Source: Candidatus Harpocratesius repetitus (GTDB taxonomy: Archaea; Asgardarchaeota; Lokiarchaeia; Sigyniarchaeales; Promethearchaeaceae). From it: a stretch of 32,000 nucleotides of DNA. The stretch lies in contig JAIZWK010000001.1 of NCBI GenBank assembly GCA_021498095.1, positions 3,510,001 to 3,542,000 of the forward strand, given 5' to 3'. Shown here one piece after another: positions 906 to 31,409 of this stretch. The stretch's first letter is position 1. The number at the start of each line of letters is the position of its first letter. The position numbers and the translations under genes were made by a program. The notes beneath the pieces are model-generated. The model saw only the letters and a program-made list of their open reading frames with translations. It was not told where the DNA came from and searched no databases.

Positions 906-1047
906 AATTTATGCCTCGATCAAAAACGAAGTCGATCAATTTGTGCTTGTTTATAGTATTTTTTTTTCTCCTTATAATGCTAGACTTTTTTAGAAATAAT
1001 CAAGGTAGATATATTAAATTAGAATCTATTTATAAATAATTTTTTGA

Positions 1048-1583: not shown

Positions 1584-1910
1584 CATATTATATTTATATG
1601 TAATTAAGAATGCTACTTATCAAGATTCATACATTTCAAATGGTTCAATTTTGAATTTGATTATGTATTTTGGGTTTATTTGATTAAACAATTTAAATTA
1701 ATTTCCTAAATCGATATAAAATATAGTTATTACGCGAATCAAAGTTGTATGTTGAATTTCTCATAACTGTACATAAAAAGCATAATTTATACTTTTTTGG
1801 TCATAAATATAGTAGGGATTATTAAGGAAATAGATAAATGAATAAATTTTTTTATATAAATAATTTTAGTAATTTAGAATAGCAAAAAAAATCATGGAAC
1901 AAGATCAATA

Positions 1911-2783: not shown

Positions 2784-2786
2784 TAA

Positions 2787-3557
2787 ATGGCGATAACGTC
2801 TACAAATCAAAATAATGGATTAAATCCTACTGCTGTTATTTTAGAAAGTTTTCAATACCTCAGAAATCAGCATCCTGATATATCAATACAGCAGATGGAG
2901 ATGTTGTTTGAGAAAGAACTAATCAATCAAATTAAAATAGAAATCTGTCGTTACAATTTTCCCAAAGTTATCCCAAAAAAGGAAATACTAAAATGGAAAC
3001 TACAAGAATCAAGAACACCAAAAAAGAAAAAAGAAATCCGGGAATATCAAATCAAACATAATGAAAAGGTTCTTTTTTATCTTACCATGCAAAATGTCAT
3101 CAAATCTTCAAAAATTGATGAAAAAGATATTTCTTTTTTTTCTATCAGTAAAAATGATATTGTTGGGAAAAAGGATTCCATTATTTCCCAGTTAGATTTT
3201 TATCCAAAAGATGAAAAATCAGAAGAAATTAATAATCTCAAATCAAATATATTGAAAGAAGAAAAAACACTTCCCTTTGGTTTTAAGAATAATCAAAATT
3301 TTGCAGATATACCTAATCGATCATTAGATTTTTTTAGTTTTGCTTCAAATTTGACAGAATCAACTTTAATTTCAAGAAATCTCAATTGGGAAAAAAGCAA
3401 TGAGATAAGAAAAAAGATAACCAAATCTGAAGAAAATGAAATAATTGAAATTGATTCTATTATTGAAGAAATTATTGATTATAAACCAAAACGATATAGA
3501 TCGAAAAGAAGCGACTGTGGTTCTTTATTGGATTTAATCGATATTGCGAATAATTAA
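2787..3557 (+). CDS. Hypothetical protein (K/E/N-rich)
   Basis: 256-aa ORF coupled to neighbours; no recognisable motif. Confidence 0.75.
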   Translation: MAITSTNQNNGLNPTAVILESFQYLRNQHPDISIQQMEMLFEKELINQIKIEICRYNFPKVIPKKEILKWKLQESRTPKKKKEIREYQIKHNEKVLFYLTMQNVIKSSKIDEKDISFFSISKNDIVGKKDSIISQLDFYPKDEKSEEINNLKSNILKEEKTLPFGFKNNQNFADIPNRSLDFFSFASNLTESTLISRNLNWEKSNEIRKKITKSEENEIIEIDSIIEEIIDYKPKRYRSKRSDCGSLLDLIDIANN

Positions 3558-3578
3558 AAAAAATTTTAGGTGAAATAA

Positions 3579-4025
3579 ATAATAAATATATCATCTAAAA
3601 AAATAATTATCGATTCAGGAGTCTGGATCTCCGCATTTGATCATAGAGATAAGTATTTCAAAAAAGGAAAAGAAATATTACAATGGATAGAAAATCAAGA
3701 AGATTATCGAATTCTAATCTCAAATTTAATTCTTGCGGAAATAGCGAATCATATTACTCGAAAAATTAATCATAAAAAAACCGAAATCATAAAAAAAATA
3801 ATTAATAATGAAAAAATCGATATGTATTATGATGATGAGAAAATATCTAAAAAAGCTATTGAAATTTATGAAAAATACAATCCTGTAGGATATGTTGATG
3901 CAACAACAGCAATTTTTTATAAATTAAAGAAATGTGATTATTTGATAACTTTCGATAACGATTTTAAACTAATTAAGGGAATTACTGCTTTGGATTGTTA
4001 TCCGATTGATTTTAAAAGTAAATAA
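3579..4025 (+). CDS. vapC: PIN-domain VapC-like RNase; the real start lies upstream of the tracked ATG (3822), apparently ATA
   Basis: Frame is open from 3579: IINISSKKIIIDSGVWISAFDHRDKYF...ILAEIANH...VGYVDATT...YLITFDNDF gives all PIN acidic motifs. SD-like AGGTGA at 3568-3573. In-frame TAA at 3576-3578 and no ATG/GTG/TTG before 3822. Confidence 0.8.
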   Translation: MINISSKKIIIDSGVWISAFDHRDKYFKKGKEILQWIENQEDYRILISNLILAEIANHITRKINHKKTEIIKKIINNEKIDMYYDDEKISKKAIEIYEKYNPVGYVDATTAIFYKLKKCDYLITFDNDFKLIKGITALDCYPIDFKSK

Positions 4026-4566
4026 TCATATATTAAAAAAATTCTTTTCTGGGTTCTATATTTATCTTTTCTCGTTTCTTGTTTAATTTTATGTTTTTCC
4101 AAATTATATCAAAATATTTGTGGTTTTTCTAACTATTTTATCTGAAATCTTGCATTTTATATCCAATATCATTTGAATTTGTTTATACCAAAAAGAATTT
4201 GTTAATTATGCAATACATTTGCTTTTCATCATCTGGATAATTTAGATTTTTATCGGTATTTATAGAAAAAATTTTAGTTATATGATGAATTTGTGGCATT
4301 CTCATTAGGATTTCCACTAAACTTTAATAATATTCATAACTTGATTAAAAATATAAAAGAAAAAAAGAGAACACTTTTGATCAGCGTAAATTTGATCGAC
4401 AGATGCATTTACTCCTATCATATTTCTCATTCTAGTTTCTTGGAATTGTTTCCATTCAAATATCCTGTTATCTACATTTTTTATTATTATAATTTGATCA
4501 TATAATTGGAAAATTAAGTCCAAAACTATTATTAAGTGCTATATATTTTACTTATTCTCAAATTTA

Positions 4567-4980
4567 TTATTGTGAGCAGTTTTTTATAATTTGAAGTAAA
4601 TCCTCTTTAGACATTTGCTGTCGTGCTTTTTGGTCATTCCAAATTTTTCGATACAGATGAAGATATTCAAAAAGTTGGGGCATATCAGGTGTTAATACAG
4701 TAATTCCTTCTTCAATCACCTTGCCTCTTAAATACCATGGGATTTCCGAGAAAAACTGAATGTCGTAATTCTTTCCATAAATATCTACCCGAACGCAAAT
4801 TTCCTTATAGAGTTTAATCGGATTGTTAGAACTTTCGACAATACATAAATCAATATCACTACGGGCTGAATTCATTTCATGTACCCATGAACCGTATAAT
4901 ATCATCCCCAAAAACGAAGGATTACTTAGTAAAAACTTAAAATCGGCAGTTATCTGATCTATAATGCTTGGTTTAACCAT
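4567..4980 (-). CDS. mntA: Minimal nucleotidyltransferase (MNT) antitoxin
   Basis: GS-X10-DxD motif (GSWVHEMNSARSDID); overlaps the HEPN gene. Confidence 0.9.
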   Translation of the reverse strand: MVKPSIIDQITADFKFLLSNPSFLGMILYGSWVHEMNSARSDIDLCIVESSNNPIKLYKEICVRVDIYGKNYDIQFFSEIPWYLRGKVIEEGITVLTPDMPQLFEYLHLYRKIWNDQKARQQMSKEDLLQIIKNCSQ

Positions 4981-5393
4981 TGGGAGATCAACTCCACATA
5001 TTGGAGAAAAATTTCGGAATGCTTTTCAATTCCGTGAAAAGCAAGTTTGTCCACTATACCATTATATTCATGTACAATCCGATTTCGCAATCCATTTGCA
5101 TATTTAAGTTCTTGGAGTATTTTCTGAGAGATAATGTTACTATCACCGAGTAAATCGAGATTTGAATAATCATCTTTTGGAACTTTACCAATGTCTTTTA
5201 ATATCATTACTGAAATATCAGAAATTGCTTCTACAATAATTTGAAATGCATGAAAAATAGCGTATTTTTCCTTTTTTGGTATTTGTTGATAATCCACATC
5301 TGTGATATCATTGATCCAAGATTGCATATCATCCAAATTTTCTTCAATTATCTGAATTTTATCTAAATATCGTTCTAATCGAACTTTCTTCAT
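4959..5393 (-). CDS. hepT: HEPN (DUF86) RNase toxin
   Basis: RX4-6H motif RNRIVH followed by EY (Tyr at the position AMPylated by MntA in characterised HepT); DUF86-like FQIIVEAISDI. Confidence 0.9.
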   Translation of the reverse strand: MKKVRLERYLDKIQIIEENLDDMQSWINDITDVDYQQIPKKEKYAIFHAFQIIVEAISDISVMILKDIGKVPKDDYSNLDLLGDSNIISQKILQELKYANGLRNRIVHEYNGIVDKLAFHGIEKHSEIFLQYVELISQWLNQAL

Positions 5394-17413: not shown

Positions 17414-17415
17414 AC

Positions 17416-17422
17416 TTTTTTT
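17416..17422 (+). terminator. T7 run just after the ago stop (possible archaeal intrinsic terminator)
   Basis: TTTTTTT two nt after TAA, followed by AT-rich TATA-like DNA before the helicase gene. Confidence 0.3.
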
Positions 17423-17463
17423 AATGTTATAATAAAAATATAAATATGAAAAAATGATTAAAA

Positions 17464-20400
17464 ATGTCTCTGAAAAATTATCTAAACTCGAATAATCTTT
17501 ATTATGCAAGCATTTATGGACAAAAACTAAAAAAATTAACTTATCTTTTTCAAAATATTCGGGATTCTTTTCGCCCTTATATCCATTTTTTGGACAGAGC
17601 GATTGAAGCAGAGAAAGAAAGAGAGATTTCAGCCCTTTTTAAAATAGTCAAAGACGATTTTACGGTTTCTTTTAAACCAATCACAAAAAAGTTGAAGATA
17701 TTATCAGAAGGTTTTCTCTACTGCGAAGTAGAACAAGATTGGGTTCAATTATTAAATTTTGAAGACATTAACAATAATTATGAAGAATTTGATTGGTCTA
17801 ATTGTGAGAATTTTGAAATTAGTTATATGTCCGATGATGGAGCCAAAACAATAAAAATCTCTAAGAAGAATATTATAGTTTTTGAAGACGACGGAAAAAT
17901 AGATTCTATATATCTTAAGTTCCCAATGAATTATAATGATTCTTATGATTTCTATTATAAACGCGTGAGATTGCAGCTTGAAAAAGTCATTGAAGATCTT
18001 GATCTCATTGAAATAACACATCATGAATATGCACTTGATGTAATTGACATTGAGCATGCAGATTCTCAAAATAGTGTTGTAAAAATCCACTATAGCGGAG
18101 TAATCACGCCGGATGATATTGAACATCTAAGAATTAATGGATTACCGCTTCAAAACCCAAGATTCAAACAGATTTCAGATCTTGGGGATGTTTCAAAGAT
18201 ATTCATTGAAAACAATACTGGAAAAAGACAATTACAAATTCTTAGGAAAGATTTTAAAAAGAACTGTGTATTTGTAGAATATTTCCGTGAAAAAGGCGAT
18301 TATTCAATCTTTGGAGAGGATCAAGAACAGAATCGAATAGAAGTGAAAGAACTTAGATTTGAACCTATTAAAAAAATCCAATTTTTAAATAGAGATATTG
18401 AAACGTTATTCTCTCCTCAATTAATTAATGAAAATCGAAGAGGATTAAATGAATACGCCGTAGATATTAAACCATTACCTAAGAACGGTGAAAAGGTTCG
18501 AGCAGATAATGGAAACGAATATGAATGTATTATAAATAAAAAAAAAAAAAGAACTGAATTGAAGCTGAAATTATTAGAAGAAAACGAAGAAGACATGCAT
18601 GAAATCTCAGAAAAATCACCACTAGATTATTTTTTTGAGGATGATGTGAATGAAGTAATGGGTCATAAGATTTTTGAAATAGCAAAAAATAAAAAACTCA
18701 TTTGGACAATTATTAGAAAAAATCGGGAAGAACGAACAATTTCAATCAAGATCAGCAGCAAAAAAAATTATAAAAATGTAAAATATAATCTAGAACGAAT
18801 GAGTGAAAAGAATTATCCTCTTTATCTCAATCGAAATGTTTATCAATTAAAAATGGAAAGAAATTTCATCAATAGGTTAATGAAAAAACCACTAGATGAT
18901 TATCTCCCCCTTCTCCGATTAGGGGAATCTATTAAAGCAACTAAATATGAATGGGATATTTTTAACCCTTTGGATGAAAAAAAAATTGAATGGGAAATCC
19001 TTACGGAAAATGAGCGAGAAGGAACGGAAAAACAAAGACTATTTGTAGAAAAAGCATTGAATACTCCTGATTTTGCTTTCCTCGAAGGTCCTCCTGGATC
19101 TGGAAAAACAACAGCAATTATAGAATTAATTTTTCAATTAATAAAACAGAATAAAAAAATACTCTTAGCAGCTTCAACTCATGTTGCCATTGACAATGTT
19201 CTTGAAAGAATCAAAAAGTACAAAACAGAATGGTTTAATAGGATTTTACCACTCAGGATAGGAGATAGACACAATATTTCTTCAAAAATCGTAGAATTCC
19301 AAATTGATAATCTATTAAAAACGCACAAAAATGGCTTAGATGGATTGAATTCCCTTATTTTAGATGCTTCTAATTTGGTTTGTGGAACAACCATAGGGAT
19401 TTTAAAACATCCTTGGTTTGATCGAAAGAAGAATCGTAATGTAGATCGAAAAGTCTTTCCAATGTTTGATTATTTAATTATAGATGAATCCAGTAAAACT
19501 ACTTTCCAAGATTTTATTATACCTGCATTGTATGCAAAAAGATGGATTTTAGTTGGTGATATTAAGCAATTAGCACCCTATGCTGAAAATGACTATTTGA
19601 AAAGGTATTTTGAAAAATTAACAGATTATAATAATAAAAATATATTTAATTCTCATGCTCAAAAGGCAAATTATTTGATATTTTTGTTACTACGGCGCTT
19701 TTGCGATAAGTCTTCAAAAAAATTTTCAAAAAAATTAAAATTTTCTGAGAGAATCTGTTTTCCTACTGATGAATCTACTATAAAAGCGTTTTTAGAAGAA
19801 ATAAATAAAAGATATGAGCAAGATATATCAAAGGATCAAATTTTATCTCAAAAATTTCCTATTATCACAATAATAGTAAAGGATCGAACTGCTTTAGCAA
19901 ATGTCAATCCAAAAATAATTGAGATCACTGAATCTGATTTAAAAACCAATATTCAAAAATCTCTTCTATTAGTAGCATCAGATCTTATTTTAATTGATTG
20001 GGATATATATAATAGAAAGGAAAATATTATTCCACCTCATTTTTTTGTCTTAAATCATCCTAACTGGAAAAATAGTCAACAAGCTTTTCGATGGAGATAT
20101 ATCATCGACATTAATAAAAACAAAAATAATAATTCAAAACTTTTGATCGAAAATTTTGAGCGTATTAATCAAGATCTGTCTGAAAAGAACTGGGCTTCTG
20201 AGATCTCTTGGCGATTAATTAGATCCTATGAATTAAGAGCACTTCCAGATAATGAAACTTTGAAAAGATATTATAACGATTTATCTTTTCTCCTCCCGCG
20301 AAAAGATGATATCTCTCGTTTTATTATAAATGCTTGGAGTATTTCGCTACCATCAATTTTAGAGTCGTTACAATCTGGCATTGGCGAAAAATATAGAGGA

Positions 20401-21294
20401 CATATTGAAACAATTTTAAAAACGGGATTTCCAAATGAATTATTTTTTCAAAGGCATGTGAAACTAGAATATCAATTTCGTATGCACAGAGACATTTCAA
20501 AATTTCCACGAAAAGAATTCTATGACTCAAAAGCTCTTCAAGATAGCAAATTAACGGATAGAACATGGCAATATTTTAGATATAGAAGAAATCGAACTTA
20601 TGAAAGCCGCTTTACTTGGATAGATCTCTATTGGAAAGCAAAAAGGAATAGAAATGAAAAGGAGGCTAATCGATTAATCAAAGAATTAAAAGAGTTTCTT
20701 AAATGGGCAGAATCAAATCCAATGAATAATGAAGGAGAAAATTGGACTGTTGCCTGTATAACATTTTATAAAGGGCAAGAAAGACTCATTCGTGAAAAAC
20801 TTAGACAATTAACTGGTCTTACTAACAGAACGAATATCTTTTACTATGGAAATGTGGATATTCTCCTATATACTGTAGATAAAATTCAAGGAAGGGAAGC
20901 GGATATTATATTTTTATCTTTGGTTCGCAATGCACGATTTTATAATGGCAAATATCAAGGGGGAAATTTAGGATTTATGGATAATCCAAACCGTTTAAAC
21001 GTTGCCTTAACACGAGCCAAATATCAACTTGTTATATTAGGCCATATCCTAAATTTTCAAGATCAAAACAACAGTATCCATTTGAAGAATTTAACGAAAG
21101 CAGTTACAATAGAAAAACGTGAAACTCCAAACCGTCGACAAAATAGAGAAAATTGGATTAATAGCAAATCAAATCAAAGAAAAAATCAACAATTCATACC
21201 ATTTTCTGAAAAATCCCGTCGAAAACGGAAAAATTCTAAGAAAAATCATTCAAAAATTAATAAAAATACACGTAATCAATGGAGAAGAAGATAA
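17464..21294 (+). CDS. SF1B helicase of the Upf1/DNA2/NAM7 (MOV10-like) family
   Basis: GPPGSGKTT, ASTHVAIDNVLER, IIDESS, LVGDIKQL, QFRMH, TVDKIQGREAD, RLNVALTRAK; ~500-aa unknown N-terminus and basic C-terminal tail. Confidence 0.95.
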   Translation: MSLKNYLNSNNLYYASIYGQKLKKLTYLFQNIRDSFRPYIHFLDRAIEAEKEREISALFKIVKDDFTVSFKPITKKLKILSEGFLYCEVEQDWVQLLNFEDINNNYEEFDWSNCENFEISYMSDDGAKTIKISKKNIIVFEDDGKIDSIYLKFPMNYNDSYDFYYKRVRLQLEKVIEDLDLIEITHHEYALDVIDIEHADSQNSVVKIHYSGVITPDDIEHLRINGLPLQNPRFKQISDLGDVSKIFIENNTGKRQLQILRKDFKKNCVFVEYFREKGDYSIFGEDQEQNRIEVKELRFEPIKKIQFLNRDIETLFSPQLINENRRGLNEYAVDIKPLPKNGEKVRADNGNEYECIINKKKKRTELKLKLLEENEEDMHEISEKSPLDYFFEDDVNEVMGHKIFEIAKNKKLIWTIIRKNREERTISIKISSKKNYKNVKYNLERMSEKNYPLYLNRNVYQLKMERNFINRLMKKPLDDYLPLLRLGESIKATKYEWDIFNPLDEKKIEWEILTENEREGTEKQRLFVEKALNTPDFAFLEGPPGSGKTTAIIELIFQLIKQNKKILLAASTHVAIDNVLERIKKYKTEWFNRILPLRIGDRHNISSKIVEFQIDNLLKTHKNGLDGLNSLILDASNLVCGTTIGILKHPWFDRKKNRNVDRKVFPMFDYLIIDESSKTTFQDFIIPALYAKRWILVGDIKQLAPYAENDYLKRYFEKLTDYNNKNIFNSHAQKANYLIFLLLRRFCDKSSKKFSKKLKFSERICFPTDESTIKAFLEEINKRYEQDISKDQILSQKFPIITIIVKDRTALANVNPKIIEITESDLKTNIQKSLLLVASDLILIDWDIYNRKENIIPPHFFVLNHPNWKNSQQAFRWRYIIDINKNKNNNSKLLIENFERINQDLSEKNWASEISWRLIRSYELRALPDNETLKRYYNDLSFLLPRKDDISRFIINAWSISLPSILESLQSGIGEKYRGHIETILKTGFPNELFFQRHVKLEYQFRMHRDISKFPRKEFYDSKALQDSKLTDRTWQYFRYRRNRTYESRFTWIDLYWKAKRNRNEKEANRLIKELKEFLKWAESNPMNNEGENWTVACITFYKGQERLIREKLRQLTGLTNRTNIFYYGNVDILLYTVDKIQGREADIIFLSLVRNARFYNGKYQGGNLGFMDNPNRLNVALTRAKYQLVILGHILNFQDQNNSIHLKNLTKAVTIEKRETPNRRQNRENWINSKSNQRKNQQFIPFSEKSRRKRKNSKKNHSKINKNTRNQWRRR

Positions 21295-22422
21295 ATGAAA
21301 ATAATTTTAAAACGAAAAGTATTAATTCAAGTATTTGAAATAATTGCAGAAATGCAGTTTGAAGAAACAAAACCTGCTTATCAAAAAATATTATCAATTG
21401 GGAAAACAGACAAAATTACGGCAGATTCAATTTTATTCTTTTTTTCTGAATATAATGAGAATTTGCAAAAGATTCTTGCAAATAATATTATTCGCTTCTT
21501 TAAAGTTGAAAAATTTATTGACGATTCAGGGAATCTTACAGTAATTGGGAATAATATTGTTGAATTAGGTAAAGTACCCATTAAAGAAAAAGGTAAATAT
21601 CTGATCTGGTGTTTGGAAGATCCACTTTGGGGCAAATGTTGCATTCATTTCACACGGATGGATTATGATTATAATTCTCATAAAGTTGAATATGGATTTC
21701 CTTTTAGCAATATCGAAAACCGTTCTTTTATTGACTTTATTCGAAATAACCATTTCGTTATTTCAAGGTTTATTTCAAAGGATGAAAAAATTCCTTTTAA
21801 AATACAAAGCAATTATAATTCAAAGCTTAATTTATTATGGGAAATTGATTTCAATCTTGAAGATAAAAAAGTTGAGAAATCTTTTATCAAATTGAATGGA
21901 AAAATCTTAGAAGAAGTCAAAAAAAGTAAAAAAGAAAAAGAAATTGAACCACAAGAAAAAGAATTTAATATTATTAATATTAATTCTTTGATTTCAACAA
22001 TTTTCAAAAATGCTTCATTAGAATGGGATAATTCAATTATTGGAGTGAAAATAGGATTAAATGAGATAGTAAACGAGAACTCCTATGATTCTTTTAGAAT
22101 GGATTTTCAATTCAACAATCAAACTATTTTAGATTTTGGAGATTTTTTAGATATCTCATGTGAAAACGTCCCCATCATCCCAAAAGATGAAAATGTAGCA
22201 AAAGAGTGGCTTATTTATAATCTATCAAAGATTTGCAAGAATAAATTCCTGTGGTCAGATGAATATTCAAAACATCTTTCAGAATTTCAATCAAAACGCG
22301 AAATTTTGCATTGTTTTCCAAGATTGAATATTGATCAAGAAGAATTAGCACAAATTTATAAAAATCGTAATCAAATGGAGAGATTCTGGCATCTACAAGC
22401 ACCTCTCGATTTAACATTTTAA
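21295..22422 (+). CDS. Hypothetical protein, translationally coupled to the helicase
   Basis: 375-aa ORF; TAAATG junction with the helicase stop. Confidence 0.85.
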   Translation: MKIILKRKVLIQVFEIIAEMQFEETKPAYQKILSIGKTDKITADSILFFFSEYNENLQKILANNIIRFFKVEKFIDDSGNLTVIGNNIVELGKVPIKEKGKYLIWCLEDPLWGKCCIHFTRMDYDYNSHKVEYGFPFSNIENRSFIDFIRNNHFVISRFISKDEKIPFKIQSNYNSKLNLLWEIDFNLEDKKVEKSFIKLNGKILEEVKKSKKEKEIEPQEKEFNIININSLISTIFKNASLEWDNSIIGVKIGLNEIVNENSYDSFRMDFQFNNQTILDFGDFLDISCENVPIIPKDENVAKEWLIYNLSKICKNKFLWSDEYSKHLSEFQSKREILHCFPRLNIDQEELAQIYKNRNQMERFWHLQAPLDLTF

Positions 22423-22435
22423 GGAGAAGATAGTA

Positions 22436-24724
22436 ATGAGTGAAAAAAACGATTATATTAAACCCGTACAACTTTCTTCATCAAAGTCCTATATGAATGA
22501 AATCTATGAAGATTTTTGGATGGAACTGCATTCAGAAATTGACAGTTATTCAGTAAAGCTATCAAATTGCTCGATCCTTCTACATACATTTGATAGATTT
22601 CGTCAAAAAATCCGCGAAGCAAAAAAATATGTCATCATTTTAACAGATCGTTTAGATTCGGAATATTTAATCGATGATTTGCTTGAAGCTTCAGAAAATG
22701 GGGCAAGGATTTATATTTTGATAGAAGAGCCGACAGAAATCCCAAATGAAAAAAAAAAGAATTTTATCCATAATATTAAGAAACTAATCAATAAAGCATT
22801 AATTAGGATAATCCCAAGAACTCAAGTTCATTTTTTATTAATTGATCCTGATGATAAAGATAATTCTTTTGGGTTTATTACAAATTCTAGACTTCTTTTT
22901 AACTCAGATTTATTTGATCTGGGTAAATTTTTATTACAATTATCTAGAACTCAAACTATAGAAGTATTTGATTTATTCAAATTGATATTTTGGACATATT
23001 CTGAGTTTCAAATTATACACGAAGAAGATATTGAATTTCCAAAGAAAATAGAACCATTATATAACCGTAAATCTAATTTAAAGTGGAAATACCTTTTTTA
23101 TAAATTAAATAAAGATGAGGATTTTATTAGTCAGAACCTTGCTGAAAACATTCAAAAAGCAAATAGAGAAATTGAAGGTATTTTCGAACATTTTGATCTT
23201 GATAATCAAATTATAGATGCCTTCAACTCAAAAATCGATTCTATTGATATTCACTTTAACACAACTTTTTATGGATGGAGACCAAATCATTTTTCGCAAT
23301 CTTCTCGATTGAATGTTATAACTCCGATCAAAAATGATCTTTCAATTCCGATTTTAAACGGAATTTGCATAGATAAAAAGGTAGGTATCTTATTTATATC
23401 TGATATTCCAATGGATGAAAGGGAAGACTACTTCTTACAAATCGCACTTAAATTAACTGCACCTCAAATGAAGCAATTTCAAGAATTTCTTTCATACATT
23501 AAAAAAATATCAAATTACCGCTATTTTTACCAGGAAAAACTCGAAAATATTAATCATAATATAATCAAAATTGATGATAATGGGGAGATTTTACCATTTG
23601 AGTTAGATGATAACTATAAAAAACATATTGATGACATCAACTGTAAAATAATTGATGAGTTTTTAAAAAAGAAAGAATTGAAGGAACGTGATTTCTCAAA
23701 ATATCAAGAACGGTATAAGAAAAAGATTGACTTTGAATGGAGGGTAATACCTCCTAGATTACCTGATAAATCAGAAAAAGACGATTTATATCGGCAATGG
23801 GATCAATTTTATCAATCATATGAAACATATATCACAGATCTTAAAGGATTGATTCAATATCTGATCAATTATTATAATAATAATAAGTTGATACTTATCC
23901 AACAAATTATCACTGGATATCGTCAAAAAATTGAAGAATTTTCTGATGAATTAAAAGAATTTAGTGAAATAGACATTGATCAAATTGAAATTGAAAAGTT
24001 AAGAGAAAAAATTAATCGTTTGCATGAAATTCACCAAAAACTAGTAGATCAATATAGAGATATTTTAACCAAATCAGATAATTGTAAAAGAATCGATGAA
24101 TTGAAAGAAAAAATTGAAATAATAAAACATGATTACACCGAAATTGAAAACAAATTAAAAAAATATATAGAAAAAATAAAAAAGGAAAAAGAAAACTTGA
24201 ATAAGAATCAAAATAGCTTAAATTCTTTAAAGGAAGCTGCAAAGAAATTAACGAAAAAGAAAAAAAAGGATCTTTATAATGATATTGATATTCAAAAGGG
24301 AATTATTAAGAAAATCAAAAATGAAATTGAAGATCTAGAAAAAGAACGAAATAAATTAGAAAAAAGAAAGATGCATTTTGAAAATTCAATCAAAAATAAT
24401 CAAAAAGAAATTGAAAGAATTAAAAGAACAATTGAAAATGAAGGTTTTAAAGATAAGAAAGAAATAACAACACATTCCTTTGATGAATTTATGAGAAAAG
24501 GGAGAAAACAAAACAAAAAAATAAAAAAAGAAATTGAAATGAATTTACCTGCTATCCACAACAATGTAACCGTACCTTCGGAAAAGATTCCTGAAGTTGG
24601 CATTTTATATCGGTCCAAAAAAGAGCGTTTTATTGTCATACAGAAATATTCAGAAATTGCTAAAGCAAAGGAAATTGAAAAAAAATATAAATGTAAAATC
24701 GTAGTAAACGGAGGAGGGAAATAG
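22436..24724 (+). CDS. Protein with two degenerate PLD-like repeats and a long C-terminal coiled coil
   Basis: IREAKKYVII...LIDDLLEASENGARIYIL PLD-like N-terminus; QVHFLLID (22823-22846) and ILNGICID (23351-23374) at HxKxxxxD positions; E/K-rich heptads in the last third; SD AAGGAG. Confidence 0.75.
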   Translation: MSEKNDYIKPVQLSSSKSYMNEIYEDFWMELHSEIDSYSVKLSNCSILLHTFDRFRQKIREAKKYVIILTDRLDSEYLIDDLLEASENGARIYILIEEPTEIPNEKKKNFIHNIKKLINKALIRIIPRTQVHFLLIDPDDKDNSFGFITNSRLLFNSDLFDLGKFLLQLSRTQTIEVFDLFKLIFWTYSEFQIIHEEDIEFPKKIEPLYNRKSNLKWKYLFYKLNKDEDFISQNLAENIQKANREIEGIFEHFDLDNQIIDAFNSKIDSIDIHFNTTFYGWRPNHFSQSSRLNVITPIKNDLSIPILNGICIDKKVGILFISDIPMDEREDYFLQIALKLTAPQMKQFQEFLSYIKKISNYRYFYQEKLENINHNIIKIDDNGEILPFELDDNYKKHIDDINCKIIDEFLKKKELKERDFSKYQERYKKKIDFEWRVIPPRLPDKSEKDDLYRQWDQFYQSYETYITDLKGLIQYLINYYNNNKLILIQQIITGYRQKIEEFSDELKEFSEIDIDQIEIEKLREKINRLHEIHQKLVDQYRDILTKSDNCKRIDELKEKIEIIKHDYTEIENKLKKYIEKIKKEKENLNKNQNSLNSLKEAAKKLTKKKKKDLYNDIDIQKGIIKKIKNEIEDLEKERNKLEKRKMHFENSIKNNQKEIERIKRTIENEGFKDKKEITTHSFDEFMRKGRKQNKKIKKEIEMNLPAIHNNVTVPSEKIPEVGILYRSKKERFIVIQKYSEIAKAKEIEKKYKCKIVVNGGGK

Positions 24725-25336
24725 ATTATAAAAAATCCATACGAAACAGAAGTTATAGGAGATTTTCTAAATATTAATCATATCTTAGACAGATCAACCT
24801 CAAACGGTCCAGGTCTAAGAACAGTCATTTGGCTTCAAGGGTGCCTTAAGCATTGTGAAGGATGTAATAATAGAAATATGTGGCCTTTTAAAATAAAACA
24901 AAAGATTGGAGTTAAAGAATTAATAGATCGAATTAGAAAGAATAAAGAAACGTTTGAAATCGAAGGAATTACATTGAGTGGAGGGGAACCACTTCTTCAA
25001 TGGAGAATCTTGATTCCTTTTTTGCAGGAAATAAAAAAAATGGAACTTTCAGTAATATGTTTTTCAGGGTATACATGGGAAGAAATAAATTGTGCTAAAT
25101 TTAAACTTGTACTCCCACTAATTGATATTTTGGTTTCAGGTCCATTTATGCAAAAAGAAAAAGGAAACTTACCTTTAAGAGGCTCAAATAATCAAGAAAT
25201 TCATTTTTTAACTAATAGATATGATAACTCCGATATTAAAGAGCAAAGTACTGAAATCTTGATCGATACTGATGGTAAAATTACAATCACAGGATTTCCA
25301 TCAAAAGATATTTTAGATTTTTTTTCTAATTATTAA
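24725..25336 (+). CDS. Radical SAM protein, NrdG/activase-like; real N-terminus lies upstream of the tracked ATG (24878)
   Basis: In-frame NGPGLRTVIWLQGCLKHCEGCNN (CxxxCxxC at 24842-24865) precedes the ATG; GITLSGGEPLLQ and LIDILVSGPF follow. Confidence 0.85.
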   Translation: MIKNPYETEVIGDFLNINHILDRSTSNGPGLRTVIWLQGCLKHCEGCNNRNMWPFKIKQKIGVKELIDRIRKNKETFEIEGITLSGGEPLLQWRILIPFLQEIKKMELSVICFSGYTWEEINCAKFKLVLPLIDILVSGPFMQKEKGNLPLRGSNNQEIHFLTNRYDNSDIKEQSTEILIDTDGKITITGFPSKDILDFFSNY

Positions 25337-25361
25337 AAATAACAATAAATAAATAAATAAT

Positions 25362-26969
25362 ATGGAAATGAAAATGGTAGAAAAAGAATTGAACGAAATT
25401 CGCACATTAATCAGAGCAGGTGCAACAGTAATTCAAGTTGTTTCATACGAACAACAGCGTGTTCAAGGTTTTGTCGATGCAATTGCCAAAGAATTAGGTT
25501 TAAATTGGTTTGATTGGAATTATGTGAAAGGTTTGCAAAAAAGCAATGATGGCGTTTTAGAAGCTTTTAAGCATAATTTAACTGATCCAATCGACTTATT
25601 GGAAGAAATTCTAACTGACGAATCTGAAAATGGATTGTATATTTGCCACGATTTTCATCCATTTATGAATGATAATCCTAAAATAATTCGGTTATTAAGG
25701 GAAATAATAACAACGCCATTTGAACACAAGAAAGCATTAATCTTATGCCAACCAATAAAAATAATTCCAAACGAATTACTAAAGGAAATGCCTATAGTTG
25801 AGGTGGAATTACCATCAAGTGAAATTTTAGAAGTGATTGCAGATGTTGTAAAGGAAAAATTCAATCTCGATAATCAATCCTTTGATAAATCAGAAGGGTT
25901 AATCAATGCAGCTCTTGGATTAACCACAATGGAAGCACAGTTAGCATTTTCAAAAGCAATTGTCGAAACTAACCAATTAAATGAAGAATCAATTAATTAT
26001 ATAATTAAAGAAAAGGAAAACATTATTAAAAAGAAAGGTACTTTAGAATATTTCCATCCAAATGACGATTTTGAAAGCATTGGTGGATTAAATGTATTAA
26101 AAGAATGGTTACGAAAACGTGGGAAGGCTTTTAAAAAAGGGGCACAAGAATATGGGTTGGATAAACCTAGAGGTGTATTATTATTAGGAATTCCTGGTTG
26201 TGGTAAAAGTTTAAGCGCAAAAGCAATAGCAAATGTTTGGAATTTTCCCTTACTTAGATTTGATTTGGGTAAAGTGTTTTCAGGGATCGTAGGTGAATCA
26301 GAACAAAACATCAGAAATGCACTAGATATTGCTAAGGCATTAGCACCTTGTGTATTATGGATTGATGAAATCGAGAAAGGCTTGTCAGGTGTGAAGAGTT
26401 CTAATGAAACAGATTCAGGAGTAAGTGCAAGAATATTTGGTACATTTTTAACTTGGATGCAAGAAAAGAAAGAACCTGTTTTTGTGGTTGCCACAGCCAA
26501 CGATATTAGTCAATTACCACCAGAATTATTGAGAAAAGGTCGATTTGATGAAATTTTCTTCGTAGATCTTCCCACTTTATCCGAACGCGAAGAAATATTC
26601 AGAATCCATATTAAAAAGAAAAAGCGAAATCCTGAAAATTTTAATATTCAATATTTTGCAAAAATAACTGTAGGATTTACAGGCTCAGAAATTGAGGAAA
26701 TTGTAAAAGAAGCTCTTTTCCGGGGTTTTGATGAAAACCGTCAGATCCAAGATAAAGACTTCATAGGAGCAATTAAAGATACAATTCCCTTATCAGTGAC
26801 TATGGGTACTGATCTCGGTGATTTACGTAAATGGGCGAAATACCATGCAAAACTCGCAAGTAAAGATGAATTTAATGAAGATTTAAGCGAGATAACCCCA
26901 AAAGAAGATATACCAAAATTAAAGCAAGCTAGTATTAATCCCTTCATAAAACGGAATGAGACGAAATAA
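25362..26969 (+). CDS. Ycf46-like AAA+ ATPase (degenerate N-terminal AAA + active C-terminal AAA)
   Basis: Walker A GIPGCGKS, Walker B WIDEIEK, SRH TAN...LPPELLRKGRFD, C-terminal PLSVTM...LRKWA. Confidence 0.92.
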   Translation: MEMKMVEKELNEIRTLIRAGATVIQVVSYEQQRVQGFVDAIAKELGLNWFDWNYVKGLQKSNDGVLEAFKHNLTDPIDLLEEILTDESENGLYICHDFHPFMNDNPKIIRLLREIITTPFEHKKALILCQPIKIIPNELLKEMPIVEVELPSSEILEVIADVVKEKFNLDNQSFDKSEGLINAALGLTTMEAQLAFSKAIVETNQLNEESINYIIKEKENIIKKKGTLEYFHPNDDFESIGGLNVLKEWLRKRGKAFKKGAQEYGLDKPRGVLLLGIPGCGKSLSAKAIANVWNFPLLRFDLGKVFSGIVGESEQNIRNALDIAKALAPCVLWIDEIEKGLSGVKSSNETDSGVSARIFGTFLTWMQEKKEPVFVVATANDISQLPPELLRKGRFDEIFFVDLPTLSEREEIFRIHIKKKKRNPENFNIQYFAKITVGFTGSEIEEIVKEALFRGFDENRQIQDKDFIGAIKDTIPLSVTMGTDLGDLRKWAKYHAKLASKDEFNEDLSEITPKEDIPKLKQASINPFIKRNETK

Positions 26970-26970
26970 A

Positions 26971-27168
26971 ATGAGTGATGAAAAAATTATTATTATGATT
27001 GATGAAGATGGAAAAATTCAAGCAGATGCAATCGGATTTAAGGGCAATATCTGCCTTAAGGAATTAGAAAAATTACTGGAAGGACTTCCTGAAATTGAAA
27101 AATTGGATAAAAAACCAGATTTTTATCAAAAAAATGTGAAATACAAACACAAAACTATACTAAAATGA
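26971..27168 (+). CDS. DUF2997-like small protein
   Basis: IIIMIDEDGKIQADAIGFKGNICLKELEKLLE; ATG directly after the AAA stop; usual neighbour of Ycf46-like ATPases. Confidence 0.8.
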   Translation: MSDEKIIIMIDEDGKIQADAIGFKGNICLKELEKLLEGLPEIEKLDKKPDFYQKNVKYKHKTILK

Positions 27169-27181
27169 TGGTGAGAATGAT

Positions 27182-27757
27182 ATGAGTTCCTTAATAACCC
27201 TTCGACTGCCGTTTTTTGATTTTGAGTGTCTAGAAAAAGCGATTGAGAAATCTGGACTTAAAATCATTCAAAAAACGAAAGATATCTTGCTTTCTAATGG
27301 AATTTTATTTCAAAATACTAATATTGGATATATTGCCCAAGTAAATAATGTTCAAAAAGAAATAATAAATGCAATTCAAACAGAATATGAAAAATTCTAT
27401 CAAGAAAAAGTTAAAGCTTTAAGAGAAGCACAGAGAAAACTAGAATATCTCGAAGATCAATTGAAGATGAAAATTAAAAAAATCAACAAGTTGAAACAAA
27501 ATTTTAGTGAGAAGAATCAAGAGAAAATTCAAAAAACAGTGTTAGAAATTGAATCGCTCCAATCTATTAAACAAATTCAAGAAGAAATAAAACGTAAGGA
27601 GCAAATGAAATTAAAGGAACTAGAAGAATCCAATAAAAAAAAGATAACACATATTGTCGAAAAAATCCAATCTCAAGCTCAGAAAAGAAAATATCGCGTT
27701 AAAATTTCTAAGATTGGAGACAAAACACAGTTAATATTGGTAAAACAGAGGTATTGA
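27182..27757 (+). CDS. DUF1257 (Ycf35)-like protein with inserted coiled coil
   Basis: N-terminal MSSLITL...DFECLEKAIEKSG and C-terminal IQSQAQKRKYRVK...TQLILVKQRY pattern; context with DUF2997 and AAA. Confidence 0.6.
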   Translation: MSSLITLRLPFFDFECLEKAIEKSGLKIIQKTKDILLSNGILFQNTNIGYIAQVNNVQKEIINAIQTEYEKFYQEKVKALREAQRKLEYLEDQLKMKIKKINKLKQNFSEKNQEKIQKTVLEIESLQSIKQIQEEIKRKEQMKLKELEESNKKKITHIVEKIQSQAQKRKYRVKISKIGDKTQLILVKQRY

Positions 27758-27813
27758 AATAAAAAGAAAGAAGATATAATGGATCTCTTCCATTGTTTTT
27801 TTCCTTTTTCAAT
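27753..27813 (+). terminator. Imperfect hairpin with U-tracts closing the helicase-AAA operon
   Basis: ATAATGGA/TCCATTGT (27776-27796) and ATTGAAA/TTTCAAT (27753-27813) arms; low-complexity middle. Confidence 0.3.
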
Positions 27814-27957: not shown

Positions 27958-29427
27958 ATGCAGAATTCCATTCTTGAACAATTACCATCCATTTTGGAAG
28001 ATTTAAAGCCTGTTGCGCGCAAAGCAGGTCAGAAAATTTTAAAATACTACGGGGACAACATAATAGTTTCGTTAAAATCAGACCAATCCCCACTAACTCA
28101 AGCAGATACTGCAGCTAATACCATTATTGTTTCCTTTTTACGTTCTCGTTTTCCAGATCATGCCATTCTTTCAGAGGAATCAAAAGATGATAAATCTCGG
28201 CTTGAAAACGACTTTTGTTGGATTGTAGATCCATTAGATGGCACAAAGGAATTTATCAAACGAAATGATGAATTTACGGTAAATATTGCTCTCGCATACA
28301 AACATCGAGTTATCTTAGGTATTATATATGCCCCAGTTTTAGAAGAGTTATATTATGCTGCCGAAGGAATTGGCACATTTTTGGAAATTGCAGATAAACC
28401 TCCAATTAAGCTGCATGTAAATAGTAAAACAACAGATCTGACCGTCGTGTCGAGTCGATCGCATAAATCGGAGAAATTAGTATCATTATTATCTCAACAT
28501 CGAGATAAAATCAAATCAGAGGTATCGAAAGGAAGTTCTCTTAAAGGTTGTTTAGTAGCAAGAGGAGACGCTGAAATTTATTATCGTTTTGGCTATACAA
28601 TGGAATGGGATACGGCAGCAATGCAATGCATTGTGGAACAGGCAGGAGGAATTTTCCGACAAATGGATGATTCAGAGATGCTCTATAACCGAGTTAATTC
28701 ATTGAATGAAAAAGGATTTTACATTTTAAATTCAATTCAAAATGCATTACACCAAGATCAAATAAAAAATCCACAAGAACAAGCGAAAAAATCACAAAAT
28801 CAAGTGGAGAATTTACAAAACCAAACGAATAATTCAAGAAATATAAAATGGCATGAAGGAAAAGTCAATCGTTCTGATCGATTATCACTTTTGGGTCAAA
28901 AAAATTTTGTTTTATGGTTTACGGGACTTTCTGGTTCAGGAAAATCAACAATTGCTGTTGCTTTAGAGCGGGAATTATTCAAACAAGGAAAATTGGCATA
29001 TCGTTTAGACGGGGATAATATTCGCCATGGATTAAATGCAGATTTAGGATTCACTCCAAAAGAGCGAAATGAGAACCTACGCCGAATAATAGAAGTATCA
29101 AAACTTTTTTATGATGCAGGAGTAATTGTTTTGGTATCTTTTATAAGTCCCTATCGTAAAATTCGGGCAGCTGCGCGCTCTGCTATCGGAAACTCCGATT
29201 TTTATGAAATATATGTAAAAGCAAGTGTTAAAACGTGTCAGCAGCGAGATCCTAAAGGCTTATATAAAAAAGCAATTGCAGGAGAAATCTCTGATTTTAC
29301 AGGTGTTTCAGCATCTGCTCCCTATGAAGAACCACTCAATCCTGAAATAACTATTGATACCGAAGAAGTTGGAGTAGATCAAGCAGTATCTATGATTCTT
29401 GAACGACTCCAAGCTGATGGAAAATAA
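27958..29427 (+). CDS. cysQ-cysC: CysQ 3'(2'),5'-bisphosphate nucleotidase fused to CysC adenylyl-sulfate kinase
   Basis: ILSEE, WIVDPLDGTKEF, WDTAA (IMPase/CysQ); Q/N-rich linker; WFTGLSGSGKST, LDGDNIRHGL, DPKGLYKKA (APS kinase). Confidence 0.93.
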   Translation: MQNSILEQLPSILEDLKPVARKAGQKILKYYGDNIIVSLKSDQSPLTQADTAANTIIVSFLRSRFPDHAILSEESKDDKSRLENDFCWIVDPLDGTKEFIKRNDEFTVNIALAYKHRVILGIIYAPVLEELYYAAEGIGTFLEIADKPPIKLHVNSKTTDLTVVSSRSHKSEKLVSLLSQHRDKIKSEVSKGSSLKGCLVARGDAEIYYRFGYTMEWDTAAMQCIVEQAGGIFRQMDDSEMLYNRVNSLNEKGFYILNSIQNALHQDQIKNPQEQAKKSQNQVENLQNQTNNSRNIKWHEGKVNRSDRLSLLGQKNFVLWFTGLSGSGKSTIAVALERELFKQGKLAYRLDGDNIRHGLNADLGFTPKERNENLRRIIEVSKLFYDAGVIVLVSFISPYRKIRAAARSAIGNSDFYEIYVKASVKTCQQRDPKGLYKKAIAGEISDFTGVSASAPYEEPLNPEITIDTEEVGVDQAVSMILERLQADGK

Positions 29428-29479: not shown

Positions 29480-29908
29480 TTATTTTGAATACTTATAATA
29501 TTGAATTTTTGATTTAGGAAATTTCTCTTTAATACCTTCAACCATTGATTTATCCGTTGTATGAATTGAAGCACCAATTTCTTTTCCATAAATATATAAA
29601 AGAGCATCTACTGTCGATAGTTGAGGAATTTGATGCATCAATATCCCGGCGGAGATAAAATAACTTAGCTCAGTAATTGCATAAACTTCTATATTATAAC
29701 TTTTAAGTAGAGAAAAGATTATCTCTTGAATATCTAACTTCTTTTTTGATTTGATTAGCCATCTTGATACTTCTAAAATTATTGGTTGAATTGTTGCGGT
29801 TTTATATCTTTGATCTTGAATATTCTTTATTAAGGTTTTTAATTTTTGAGGGGGATTTTTTGTTAGTAGATTTAAGATTATCCCAGTATCAATTAAGATT
29901 TCACTCAT
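29480..29908 (-). CDS. vapC: PIN-domain VapC toxin
   Basis: ILIDTGII, ILEV, STVDALL, IHTTD; ATG at 29908 with GGAG upstream preferred over GTG at 29929. Confidence 0.88.
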   Translation of the reverse strand: MSEILIDTGIILNLLTKNPPQKLKTLIKNIQDQRYKTATIQPIILEVSRWLIKSKKKLDIQEIIFSLLKSYNIEVYAITELSYFISAGILMHQIPQLSTVDALLYIYGKEIGASIHTTDKSMVEGIKEKFPKSKIQYYKYSK

Positions 29909-29955
29909 ATATCTGTCTCCAAACACCACGAATTAAAAAAATAATTAATATATTC

Positions 29956-30213
29956 TTAAAAAGAAATCCTATTTTCATTTTCTATGTCTTTTTCTTTTTG
30001 GGTTTTTCTTTGATTCAGTAGTGCAACCATTTCCTCATAATCAAAAATTTTATTTTTCTCTTTTGTAAAATCGATAATTGGTTTTAAAATAATATAGCCA
30101 TCTTTTTCACTCACAATTATTTTGCTGCCATCATTAATTTTCAATTTCTTCCTAATTTTTGCAGGGATTGTTAGCATTCCTCTATTAGTAACTGTTACTA
30201 CATTTCGAATCAT
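29956..30213 (-). CDS. vapB: AbrB/MazE/SpoVT-type antitoxin
   Basis: VTVTNRGMLTIPAKIRKKLKINDGSKI signature; upstream of the PIN gene. Confidence 0.9.
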   Translation of the reverse strand: MIRNVVTVTNRGMLTIPAKIRKKLKINDGSKIIVSEKDGYIILKPIIDFTKEKNKIFDYEEMVALLNQRKTQKEKDIENENRISF

Positions 30214-30509
30214 ACTAAGTAAAATTAGAAATTGTCAGCATTTATAATTTTGCAGAGTATTTTTATATTTTCTTGTAATCTTAAAAAAAAAAAACATCAA
30301 GCATTTTGTACTATGTGTGTGGATTACTTGAATCGATGATCTATTGCTTCCACAATCCCATACAGCTTACTAACTAAAGGAACATGTCTTGCACAGTCCA
30401 CGACTTTTAGTACCGTATATGGATTCTATTTAGCAAGAGATTTGCGATTCTCAACTATGTTCGGAGTATCTCACATTTCATAAATTATCAGAGTGGGTAG
30501 CTGGTGTGA

Positions 30510-31011
30510 TCATGTTATATGTTGCAGTTCTTTTTTCCATATTTTTATTTCTCGCTTTTGGTATAATCCATTCTTTTCCCAAAATCTGAGCAATTGAGCC
30601 CCTGTATTTTTTCGTATAAAGCCGGATTGTATTAACCAAATACAGAATGAAGGTAAGCGAAAGCCAACTAACCCCCAACTTTTTATTTCCATTAATAATT
30701 CTCCATCATCAGATAATAATATTGCACCATCTCTTTTTGCACAAAAAGCCAAAGTTTGTTCTGGAAGATCAAATTCGTTGATAAATGGGAATTGTTTCTG
30801 AAAGGATATAATTTCTTTCTGTGATAAGGGAATACGAAATCCATCTTCAATCGGGATAAATTTTTGAAGGTGATAGTTGTGATATTCTTCAACAATTTGC
30901 TCTGTATACCCCCAACGAAAGTGTATAAGCACATCTCGTAAATCAATCTTAATTTCAAAAAAAAAGGTGTTGGATATACAGCCAAAGGCATGTATCAATA
31001 AGAAAAAGCAT
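30510..31011 (-). pseudogene. PIN toxin (paralogue of 5768-6271) broken by a +1 frameshift in a T9 run
   Basis: ATG 31011 gives MLFLIDTCLWLYIQHLFF* at T9 (30957-30965); T8 gives ...LFFEIKIDLR, with the same 13-residue DTC-to-IDLR spacing as the paralogue. Confidence 0.8.
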
Positions 31012-31039
31012 GAGAAATGAGAAAAAGCATGAGAAATGA
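31002..31039. repeat. Exact 19-bp tandem duplication spanning the PIN start codon
   Basis: GAAAAAGCATGAGAAATGA at 31002-31020 and 31021-31039. Confidence 0.95.
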
Positions 31040-31052
31040 TTCCTTTCTAATA

Positions 31053-31409
31053 TTATAATATCGGTTTTTTTATTTCTTCAGCATTATTTTTCAAGAATTC
31101 AGTAATATCCAGCTTAGAGAGAGCGTTCATTTCACTTTCAATTAATTCTTCAGGTAATTTTTCAGTCACTTTTCGTTTTAGACCTTCACACATAAATTCA
31201 TAATATGTTAAACCAGACATTTTAAAGGCATTTTTTTTGCTTATTTTGCCTTCTTGCATGAGATCGAAAGCAATATCAACCCGAAGCTGTTCTAATTCCT
31301 TCAATACGAAGCGCTTTGATAATTCTGCTAACGAAATATTCTTAATCATTGCAATCTTATCTAAAATTTTCTTTTCGTTTTCACCTATACGAAAGTTAAT
31401 TTGATACAT
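31053..31409 (-). CDS. Antitoxin: RHH + UPF0175-like HTH (paralogue of 6335-6661)
   Basis: MYQINFRI...SLAELSKR...EGKISKKNAFKMSGLTYYEF. Confidence 0.8.
   Translation of the reverse strand: MYQINFRIGENEKKILDKIAMIKNISLAELSKRFVLKELEQLRVDIAFDLMQEGKISKKNAFKMSGLTYYEFMCEGLKRKVTEKLPEELIESEMNALSKLDITEFLKNNAEEIKKPIL

Follow-up and report, generated by a model that had tools for sequence, protein, structure and literature searches.

A seven-gene cassette behind rnc-hrAgo1 in an Asgard archaeon joins a Mokosh/CnuH-CnuE-like unit to a radical SAM/AAA+ unit

Mokosh type I consists of a helicase with a kinase domain and an active PLD nuclease, and mutants of the PLD active site lose defence (10.1101/2022.05.11.491447). 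In the CoCoNuT systems, CnuH helicases typically precede an elongated winged helix-turn-helix (wHTH) protein fused to varied effectors, which in Type III-C comprise two PLD domains; it is suggested that coiled-coils link the partners, RNA targeting is predicted, UPF1-like helicases are described as acting in RNA surveillance, and the term "radical SAM" has 0 occurrences in the paper (PMC11090510). In cyanobacteria, DUF2997, ycf35 and the ferredoxin gene fed7 form a cluster, and Ycf46, Ycf35 and DUF2997 are core genes (PMC4284462). We describe here a cassette of seven genes that shares features with each of these. It lies at positions 17464-27757 of a stretch of 32,000 nucleotides, hereafter named the window (G000:C1:3510001-3542000), which comes from the 4.36-Mb single-contig genome, 93.6% complete, of an Asgard archaeon. 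The published HrAgo1 locus, that of "Ca. Harpocratesius repetitus" FW102, lies within the window, and the cassette is placed directly behind rnc-hrAgo1.

The cassette is a conserved and mobile composite of two units, a Mokosh/CnuH-CnuE-like unit 1 and a radical SAM/AAA+ unit 2, all seven genes being on the + strand. Unit 1 is made of a UPF1-like superfamily 1 (SF1) helicase, MkoA/CnuH-like (gene 1, 17464..21294, 1276 aa, Pfam AAA_11/AAA_12), a winged-helix adaptor of a family that we call "Unk375" (gene 2, 21295..22422, 375 aa, recognised on an AlphaFold2 (AF2) model and matched by no Pfam model), and an inactivated PLD-fold protein (gene 3, 22436..24724, 762 aa, sub-threshold PLDc_2). Unit 2 is made of an NrdG-like radical SAM enzyme of the glycyl-radical-activase type (gene 4, 24725..25336, first ATG at 24878, Fer4_12), a Cdc48-like AAA+ ATPase (gene 5, 25362..26969, 535 aa, Pfam AAA at 7e-32 plus lid), a small DUF2997 protein (gene 6, 26956..27168, 70 aa, PF11211) and a DUF1257 (Ycf35)-like protein (gene 7, 27182..27757, 191 aa, recognised with hhalign). 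A preliminary description of the region had reported seven co-oriented, tightly packed genes at 17464-27757, which the listing of open reading frames (ORFs) and the junction sequences bear out, and its assignments of the AAA_11/AAA_12 SF1 helicase, the Fer4_12 radical SAM enzyme, the AAA domain with its lid and DUF2997 were all confirmed. It had also been unable to match the whole set to a named system, and no PADLOC system indeed fits the entire cassette. The cassette is not a single invention but joins two units that can also occur apart.

All seven families were found together in at least 5 archaeal and at least 9 bacterial copies. Bacterial carriers belong to the Myxococcota (L080, L082, L084, L086), the Rhizobiaceae (L083), Ca. 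Kuenenia of the Planctomycetota (L085) and the Rickettsiales (L087), and the full set was also present on low-GC metagenome contigs (L165-L167). The archaeal-type, low-GC copies are G079/L079, L073/L068, L074, L076/L163 and L162. Conservation of gene order elsewhere had been put forward as a check on the preliminary description: the gene set does recur in archaea and bacteria, but its order varies. The copy of G079, an Asgard genome of another family, is ordered as in the window; L073/L068 reads rnc-Piwi-AAA-helicase-adaptor-PLD-DUF2997-radical SAM-DUF1257; in L074, from a Helarchaeota metagenome-assembled genome, the cassette is distributed over two divergent operons; and the bacterial copies, together with L165-L167, read AAA-helicase-adaptor-PLD-like-DUF2997-DUF1257-radical SAM. 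Identity to the window proteins goes from 26-37% for the adaptor up to 46-60% for the AAA+ protein.

Among 400 Asgard genomes, the adaptor was detected in 14 and DUF2997 in 19, and both were present only in the window genome and in G079; the cassette is missing from both other genomes of the window's genus. In G079 the cassette is disrupted, with an element of ~317 nt bounded by 39-nt terminal inverted repeats in the PLD-like gene (L079 6221-6537), and an insert of ~195 nt containing in-frame stops between conserved residues of the helicase (L079 ~2125-2330). From their sequences, these inserts look like insertions of the miniature inverted-repeat transposable element type. Sequencing errors were considered as the cause of the broken frames, an explanation that is countered by the insertion with its 39-nt inverted repeats.

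Unit 1 also exists on its own. Helicase and adaptor were found in 12 further Asgard genomes (of the 400), accompanied in 8 of the 12 by a PLD protein of 499-530 aa. Two of these stand-alone helicases were scanned and matched MkoA at 1e-76 and 1e-82, while the stand-alone Asgard PLD proteins scanned had PLDc_2 and weak MkoB/DrmC matches, and those that were aligned have two intact HxK motifs. Comparison of joined and separate copies revealed three differences. First, the HxK motifs are lost at both sites in 11/11 cassette PLD copies examined (0 motifs, against 2 in stand-alone helicase-adaptor-PLD trios). Second, the PLD-like protein is longer, with 600-884 aa in the cassette and 499-552 aa in stand-alone copies. 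Third, the DUF1257 protein measures ~169-200 aa in cassettes against 125-139 aa elsewhere. Another explanation of the locus would be that a Mokosh-like trio and an AAA+/radical SAM module, unrelated as systems, are merely adjacent in a variable region, and the finding of both units separately elsewhere speaks for it. However, the two are found together in at least 14 archaeal and bacterial loci, in three gene orders in which the units are interleaved, and the loss of HxK and the longer PLD and DUF1257 proteins are specific to the joined state. Mere adjacency is thus disfavoured, and we regard it as very improbable.

The window helicase gives a PADLOC MkoA match at 2e-80, and its closest solved relatives are DNA2, UPF1, IGHMBP2 and SEN1. 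By sequence it is an SF1 helicase of the UPF1/DNA2-like type, and not an SF2 helicase of the RIG-I/Dicer type. Its N-terminus is extended by ~500 aa, rich in beta structure, and its tail is basic. The AF2 model of the N-terminus (530 residues, mean confidence pLDDT 75) contains several small beta domains; used as a single, unsplit 530-residue model in a VIA structure search, it produced no clear match, the Z scores for small beta barrels, translation-factor domain II, Gar1/RimM and Sen1/Setx being 5.8 at most. Foldseek searches of the adaptor and of the helicase N-terminus against the PDB, which the preliminary description had proposed, returned zero matches at E <= 1e-3.

The cassette shares with Mokosh type I a UPF1-like helicase of COG1112 type and, after it, a PLD-fold protein. 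It differs from it in three respects: the Mokosh helicase has a Ser/Thr kinase domain, whereas none was seen on the window helicase among Pfam matches at E <= 0.01; Mokosh requires an active PLD, whereas the cassette PLD has lost its active site; and the cassette has an extra gene, the winged-helix adaptor, between helicase and PLD, plus four additional genes. Membership of Mokosh type I was rejected, since the helicase is there and the two other defining features out of three, kinase and active PLD, are lacking. The preliminary description had seen a PLD fold in gene 3 and had pointed to PLD folds as common anti-phage effectors. The fold itself is indicated by a PLDc_2 match of 25.5 bits, below the cut-off of 27; the catalytic HxK motifs are gone, and the protein is catalytically degenerate in all the cassette copies examined, which makes it an unlikely effector. 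Between its conserved blocks, the window PLD protein has a coiled-coil insertion of ~250 aa (residues 485-710 give SMC/Rad50/JetC-like coiled-coil matches), and it ends with a small conserved C-terminal domain.

The adaptor gave no Pfam or PADLOC match. Its AF2 model (pLDDT 89.4) has a wHTH at residues 25-93 (VIA Z ~8, root mean square deviation ~2 A over 63 residues), with a long beta hairpin at its flank, and its whole fold matches clusters of bacterial hypothetical proteins in the ESM Atlas (TM 0.72). A homology search on a word index returned zero homologues of the 375-aa protein, and an exhaustive profile search was needed, which recovered at least 999 representative clusters, including 321 with E <= 1e-30; none of the clusters in the sample checked has a name. 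Related loci were retrieved with a 5-sequence alignment, and in the loci examined the adaptor gene always comes after the helicase gene.

The cassette resembles CnuH-CnuE in that a UPF1-like SF1 helicase precedes a gene with a wHTH, flanked here by a long beta hairpin, which may correspond to the elongated wHTH of CnuE, the latter having been compared by its description only. It differs in that wHTH and PLD are encoded by separate genes, that the PLD is inactive, and that a radical SAM/AAA+/DUF2997/DUF1257 unit is added. No match to the McrB/McrC-type (CnuB/CnuC) families was found among ten window proteins scanned, and CoCoNuT membership was rejected, CnuB/CnuC being lacking.

In unit 2, NrdG is the best family for the radical SAM enzyme and, like NrdG/PflA activases, it is a small Fer4_12 enzyme with the NGPGxR, CxxxCxxC and GGEP motifs; all three are conserved in the alignment of the subfamily, and CxxxCxxC and GGEP are invariant. 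The N-terminal NGPGxR resembles DGxGxR, which we take to be typical of glycyl-radical activases. These motifs point to an activase that would act on a protein loop. The enzyme differs from true NrdG: its TIGR02491 (NrdG) score of 112.5 bits is below the cut-off of 126.1, NrdD is wanting in the genome, and no glycyl-radical domain is recognisable in its neighbours, so that a genuine NrdG identity was rejected. The preliminary description had noticed an activase without a cognate glycyl-radical enzyme nearby, and this extends to the whole genome, where no convincing NrdD was found: the single NRDD match is weak (32.6 bits) and partial, covering profile positions 280-403 of 562, and the two PFL-like glycyl-radical enzymes of the genome adjoin larger activases of their own.

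Alternatively, the radical SAM enzyme could modify RNA or a nucleotide, as a QueE-like or viperin-like enzyme, the helicase delivering the substrate. Weaker matches to QueE and viperin models do exist (PADLOC pVip, 0.0015), and the other recognisable activities in archaeal loci are RNA-directed (RNase III, Argonaute, and NYN in a paralogous locus presented below). But glycyl-radical activases are the best families by far (NrdG 1.7e-32, PflA 2e-20), NGPGxR is kept ahead of the cluster in the subfamily, the enzyme has only about 190-200 aa and no extra substrate domain, and DUF2997 is usually encoded just upstream of, or overlapping, the radical SAM gene. Direct chemistry on nucleic acids is therefore a possibility that we hold to be doubtful.

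The radical SAM subfamily comprises 266 homologues at E <= 1e-10. In 80 genome loci from species representatives, DUF2997 was nearby in 23, an AAA+ gene in 24 and the full cassette in 8. In bacteria, the subfamily is also found alongside DUF1257, DUF2997, AAA+, Hsp70 and WD40 genes. These AAA+/lid-less Hsp70/DUF1257/DUF2997/radical SAM/WD40 operons thus share with the cassette both the radical SAM subfamily and the same partners, and the radical SAM proteins of the AAA+/Hsp70/WD40 operons and of a bacterial cassette are 37-47% identical to that of the window. A further arrangement was observed in Clostridia, Mollicutes and Bacteroidota (L106, L109, L112, L117, L118, L126, L133, L136, L137, L151), where a member of the subfamily is encoded ~5 kb downstream of an ORF of ~1500 aa for an SF1 helicase; DUF2997 was undetected in these loci by the profile used, and they may represent a third helicase/radical-SAM architecture.

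The AAA+ protein belongs to the classic Cdc48/FtsH clade, with the D2 domain of Cdc48/p97 as its best solved relatives. It has an N-domain of its own, ~230 aa long, which co-occurs with DUF2997 and the radical SAM subfamily in 21/80 of the genome loci. "Ycf46-type" was the label given to it in the preliminary description; here, the label covers only an AAA domain of generic type plus an N-domain that co-occurs with DUF2997. DUF2997 scores 31.1 bits with PF11211 (cut-off 24.1) and has one invariant Cys in the alignment. The assignment of gene 7 to DUF1257, also made in the preliminary description, was not reproduced by the Pfam model, which gave no match, but it stands by profile-profile comparison: hhalign of a profile of cassette copies against a profile of Pfam-annotated DUF1257 proteins gave a probability of 91% and an E value of 1e-6 over 73 columns. 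Both ends of the protein were aligned as well, with a matching C-terminal block, and a coiled-coil insertion separates them, ~90 aa long in the window and also present in the other aligned archaeal copies.

Compared with the cyanobacterial and plastid ycf46-ycf35-DUF2997 neighbourhood, the cassette shares the presence of DUF2997 and DUF1257 together and, in many loci, a similar AAA+ with an N-domain. It differs in that radical SAM and helicase genes are not listed in the cyanobacterial cluster as described (PMC4284462), and in that the cassette DUF1257 has its coiled-coil insertion. This likeness suggests another reading of the cassette, in which a Ycf46-like stress operon and an RNA-surveillance helicase would carry out housekeeping or stress-related quality control of RNA and protein. 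It can rely on the conservation of DUF2997 and DUF1257/Ycf35 in the cyanobacterial cluster (PMC4284462), on the part of UPF1-like helicases in RNA surveillance (PMC11090510), and on the housekeeping cysQ-cysC fusion gene that follows the cassette. However, a cassette present in 2/400 Asgard genomes, missing from both other genomes of its genus, disrupted by insertion in G079, represented by two divergent paralogous loci in one genome, and shuffled in gene order among copies hardly has the distribution of a housekeeping operon, and the stand-alone relatives match defence models (MkoA at 1e-76 to 1e-82, DrmC/MkoB). We consider the housekeeping reading unlikely.

The reading that we favour, with about an even chance of being right, is that the cassette would be an RNA-directed conflict system that descends from a module of the Mokosh/CnuHE type, with the radical SAM/AAA+ unit in place of the nuclease. 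Replacement of the effector, and coupling of the units by coiled-coils, are suggested by the joined copies, which have a dead nuclease and longer PLD and DUF1257 proteins, the extensions being coiled-coil-like in the window. The helicase unit would sense RNA, foreign or aberrant, probably with double-stranded features, as suggested by the recurrent RNase III neighbour in archaea. Unit 1, having lost its nuclease, would relay the signal to unit 2 by way of the PLD scaffold, which would touch DUF1257 via coiled-coils. Unit 2 would be the effector: the radical SAM enzyme would modify a protein partner or place a radical on it, with DUF2997 or DUF1257, usually encoded right beside this enzyme, as the likeliest partner, and the Cdc48-like AAA+ protein would unfold or remodel the target, resulting in growth arrest or target inactivation.

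Several observations weigh against the proposal of an RNA-directed conflict system. The contact between PLD and DUF1257 coiled-coils is inferred from their co-occurrence, and neither DUF2997 nor DUF1257 shows a glycyl-radical motif. On metagenome contigs of ~57% GC (L170, L171, L173, L168), AAA+, helicase and adaptor genes are followed by a protein of 659-688 aa without HxK, and DUF2997, DUF1257 and radical SAM genes were undetected downstream. The core status of Ycf46/Ycf35/DUF2997 in cyanobacteria, beside a ferredoxin (PMC4284462), fits a physiological role of unit 2. As for the genomic context, that of the window is merely rich in toxin-antitoxin genes, and the two CARF/Csa3-like genes upstream of the cassette of L162 (within 208-4314) are sub-threshold Pfam matches.

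[quoted passage not shown] An RNase III gene adjoins 3/3 archaeal cassettes with a resolved upstream flank (window, L073, L162), as well as a paralogous locus of the same genome, L065. An Argonaute gene adjoins two of these three (window, L073), the L073 Argonaute being 21% identical to HrAgo1. In L162, a divergently oriented gene for an RNase III-domain protein (228 aa, without dsRBD) accompanies the cassette, and no Argonaute gene was found within 4.8 kb upstream. In G079, an L073-like Argonaute is on a separate contig of 3.8 kb. The closest relative of HrAgo1 among the 400 genomes (31% identity) is encoded in G134, where rnc is upstream of Ago (L161, G134:C109, 7704-12024), a second RNase III-domain gene (176 aa) is directly downstream, and the cassette is absent. 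Archaeal and bacterial cassettes thus differ both in gene order and in partners, with RNase III and in two cases also Argonaute beside the archaeal ones, and the bacterial ones being without PIWI (0/7 bacterial carrier genomes have a Piwi domain). The cassette is autonomous, Argonaute is an occasional partner, and RNase III is the constant neighbour in archaea: this follows from the cassette of L162 without Argonaute nearby, the Argonaute of G134 without cassette, and the Piwi-free bacterial carriers.

In the HrAgo1 paper, only rnc and a "HEDxD/H helicase" are mentioned as flanking genes; they are likened to Dicer domains, and a role in guide generation is proposed, for which the authors call for experiments (PMC11217426). 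Asgard defence papers list Mokosh and Argonaute separately, and homology between domains of MkoA/MkoB and the piRNA pathway is reported (PMC11291487). From this, one could imagine that the cassette serves the biogenesis of HrAgo1 guide RNAs, RNase III dicing and the Armitage/MOV10-like helicase and a Zucchini-like PLD processing precursors, in a pre-eukaryotic pathway of piRNA/siRNA type to which the other genes would be accessory. The position of the cassette directly downstream of rnc-Ago in two loci that differ in gene order, with Argonautes just 21% identical, the possible guide-generating role suggested for the flanking helicase (PMC11217426) and the reported piRNA-pathway homology (PMC11291487) are all in its favour. 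Yet, of the piRNA-like trio (PIWI, Armitage/MOV10L1, Zucchini), helicase and PIWI are present and the active HKD nuclease is not: the PLD protein is without both HxK motifs, and hence not Zucchini-like. The helicase is SF1 and UPF1/DNA2-like rather than SF2, so that the "Dicer-like" label does not fit it. Moreover, none of the seven bacterial carrier genomes has Piwi, L162 combines cassette and RNase III with no Argonaute within those 4.8 kb, and G134 has rnc-Ago and a second RNase III, the cassette being absent. Guide biogenesis is improbable in our view, and from the sequences an RNA-directed conflict system appears more likely than a Dicer-like guide maker. In Harpocratesius, the cassette may act with rnc-hrAgo1, an Argonaute not being needed in general.

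The window's genome has a second, divergent locus (L065/L075, G000:C1:2526000-2558000, - strand), which encodes, in this order, an RNase III-domain protein (226 aa, without dsRBD), a DUF1257/DUF2997-like fusion (189 aa), a radical SAM enzyme (193 aa), an AAA+ protein (539 aa), a protein of 1028 aa and a UPF1-like helicase fused to an NYN RNase (1327 aa), with a protein of 1253 aa beyond. The only other small NrdG-like gene of the genome is found there. We also observed that the architecture of the RNase III protein of L162 resembles that of this second Harpocratesius locus. No paper was found that links these gene families, or that describes the cassette or the second locus.

A bolder version of our proposal would be that an RNA-sensing, UPF1-like helicase complex swapped its nuclease for a glycyl-radical-type machine (orphan activase, DUF2997/DUF1257 substrates, Cdc48-like unfoldase) and was wired in Asgard archaea to RNase III and a eukaryote-like Argonaute as one pre-eukaryotic pathway of RNA silencing or immunity, which is a speculative and rather doubtful scenario. 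If true, it would bring a radical-chemistry effector arm that is new to immune or RNA-silencing pathways. HrAgo1 is the best-studied Argonaute link between prokaryotes and eukaryotes, and the helicase flanking it is the first gene of a cassette found in Ago-free bacteria, which alters the interpretation of the HrAgo1 locus. The cassette also gives a handle on the function of DUF2997, of DUF1257/Ycf35 and of the associated AAA+ protein. It is widespread and experimentally tractable, with a Mokosh/CnuHE-type nuclease that is systematically dead and an orphan activase and unfoldase that are systematically present.

At the level of gene expression, the preliminary description had given gaps of 0-25 nt, with TAAATG coupling and Shine-Dalgarno (SD) motifs. 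Coupling (21292-21297, at the helicase/adaptor junction) and SD motifs (GGAG-type, ahead of three genes) are indeed present, but the gaps really range from -14 to +25 nt, and the gap of 0 nt is obtained only if the radical SAM gene starts at ATT 24725 or ATA 24728. No ATG, GTG or TTG is found ahead of CxxxCxxC in this gene, and its first ATG (24878) falls past the motif. Translation probably starts at ATT 24725 or ATA 24728, behind a strong SD, GGAGGAGG; these codons come after this SD and after the in-frame TAG that ends the upstream gene, which makes an AUU or AUA start likely. Fer4_12 matches at 7.5e-35 from there, compared with a match that is truncated from ATG 24878, and the orthologues are separate genes with ordinary starts. 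Read-through of the TAG, giving a PLD-radical SAM fusion, was also considered and is unlikely, as the genes are separate in all relatives, with DUF2997 in between in L073 and L076. For DUF2997, the true start is likely ATG 26971, 1 base past the stop of the AAA+ gene. In the spacer of 50 nt between Ago and helicase (17414-17463), a run of seven T is followed by an AT-rich, TATA-like stretch ~25 nt ahead of the helicase ATG, on account of which the cassette may have its own promoter, separate from that of hrAgo1.

At the other end, where a hairpin and U-tract had been reported, the T-rich tract is there (about 27793-27809, + strand, read from the sequence) and is a plausible archaeal terminator; the hairpin is weak and was not called by a terminator scan of bacterial type. 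A cysQ-cysC fusion gene (27958-29427) comes directly 3' of the cassette. Further out, the setting among toxin-antitoxin modules claimed in the preliminary description was found again, with HepT/MNT genes at 4567-5393 on one side, and on the other a PIN gene at 29480-29929 and DUF6290/UPF0175-like antitoxin genes within 29480-31409. Finally, a gene for a small GTPase of the Ras family is located at 348-905 of the window.

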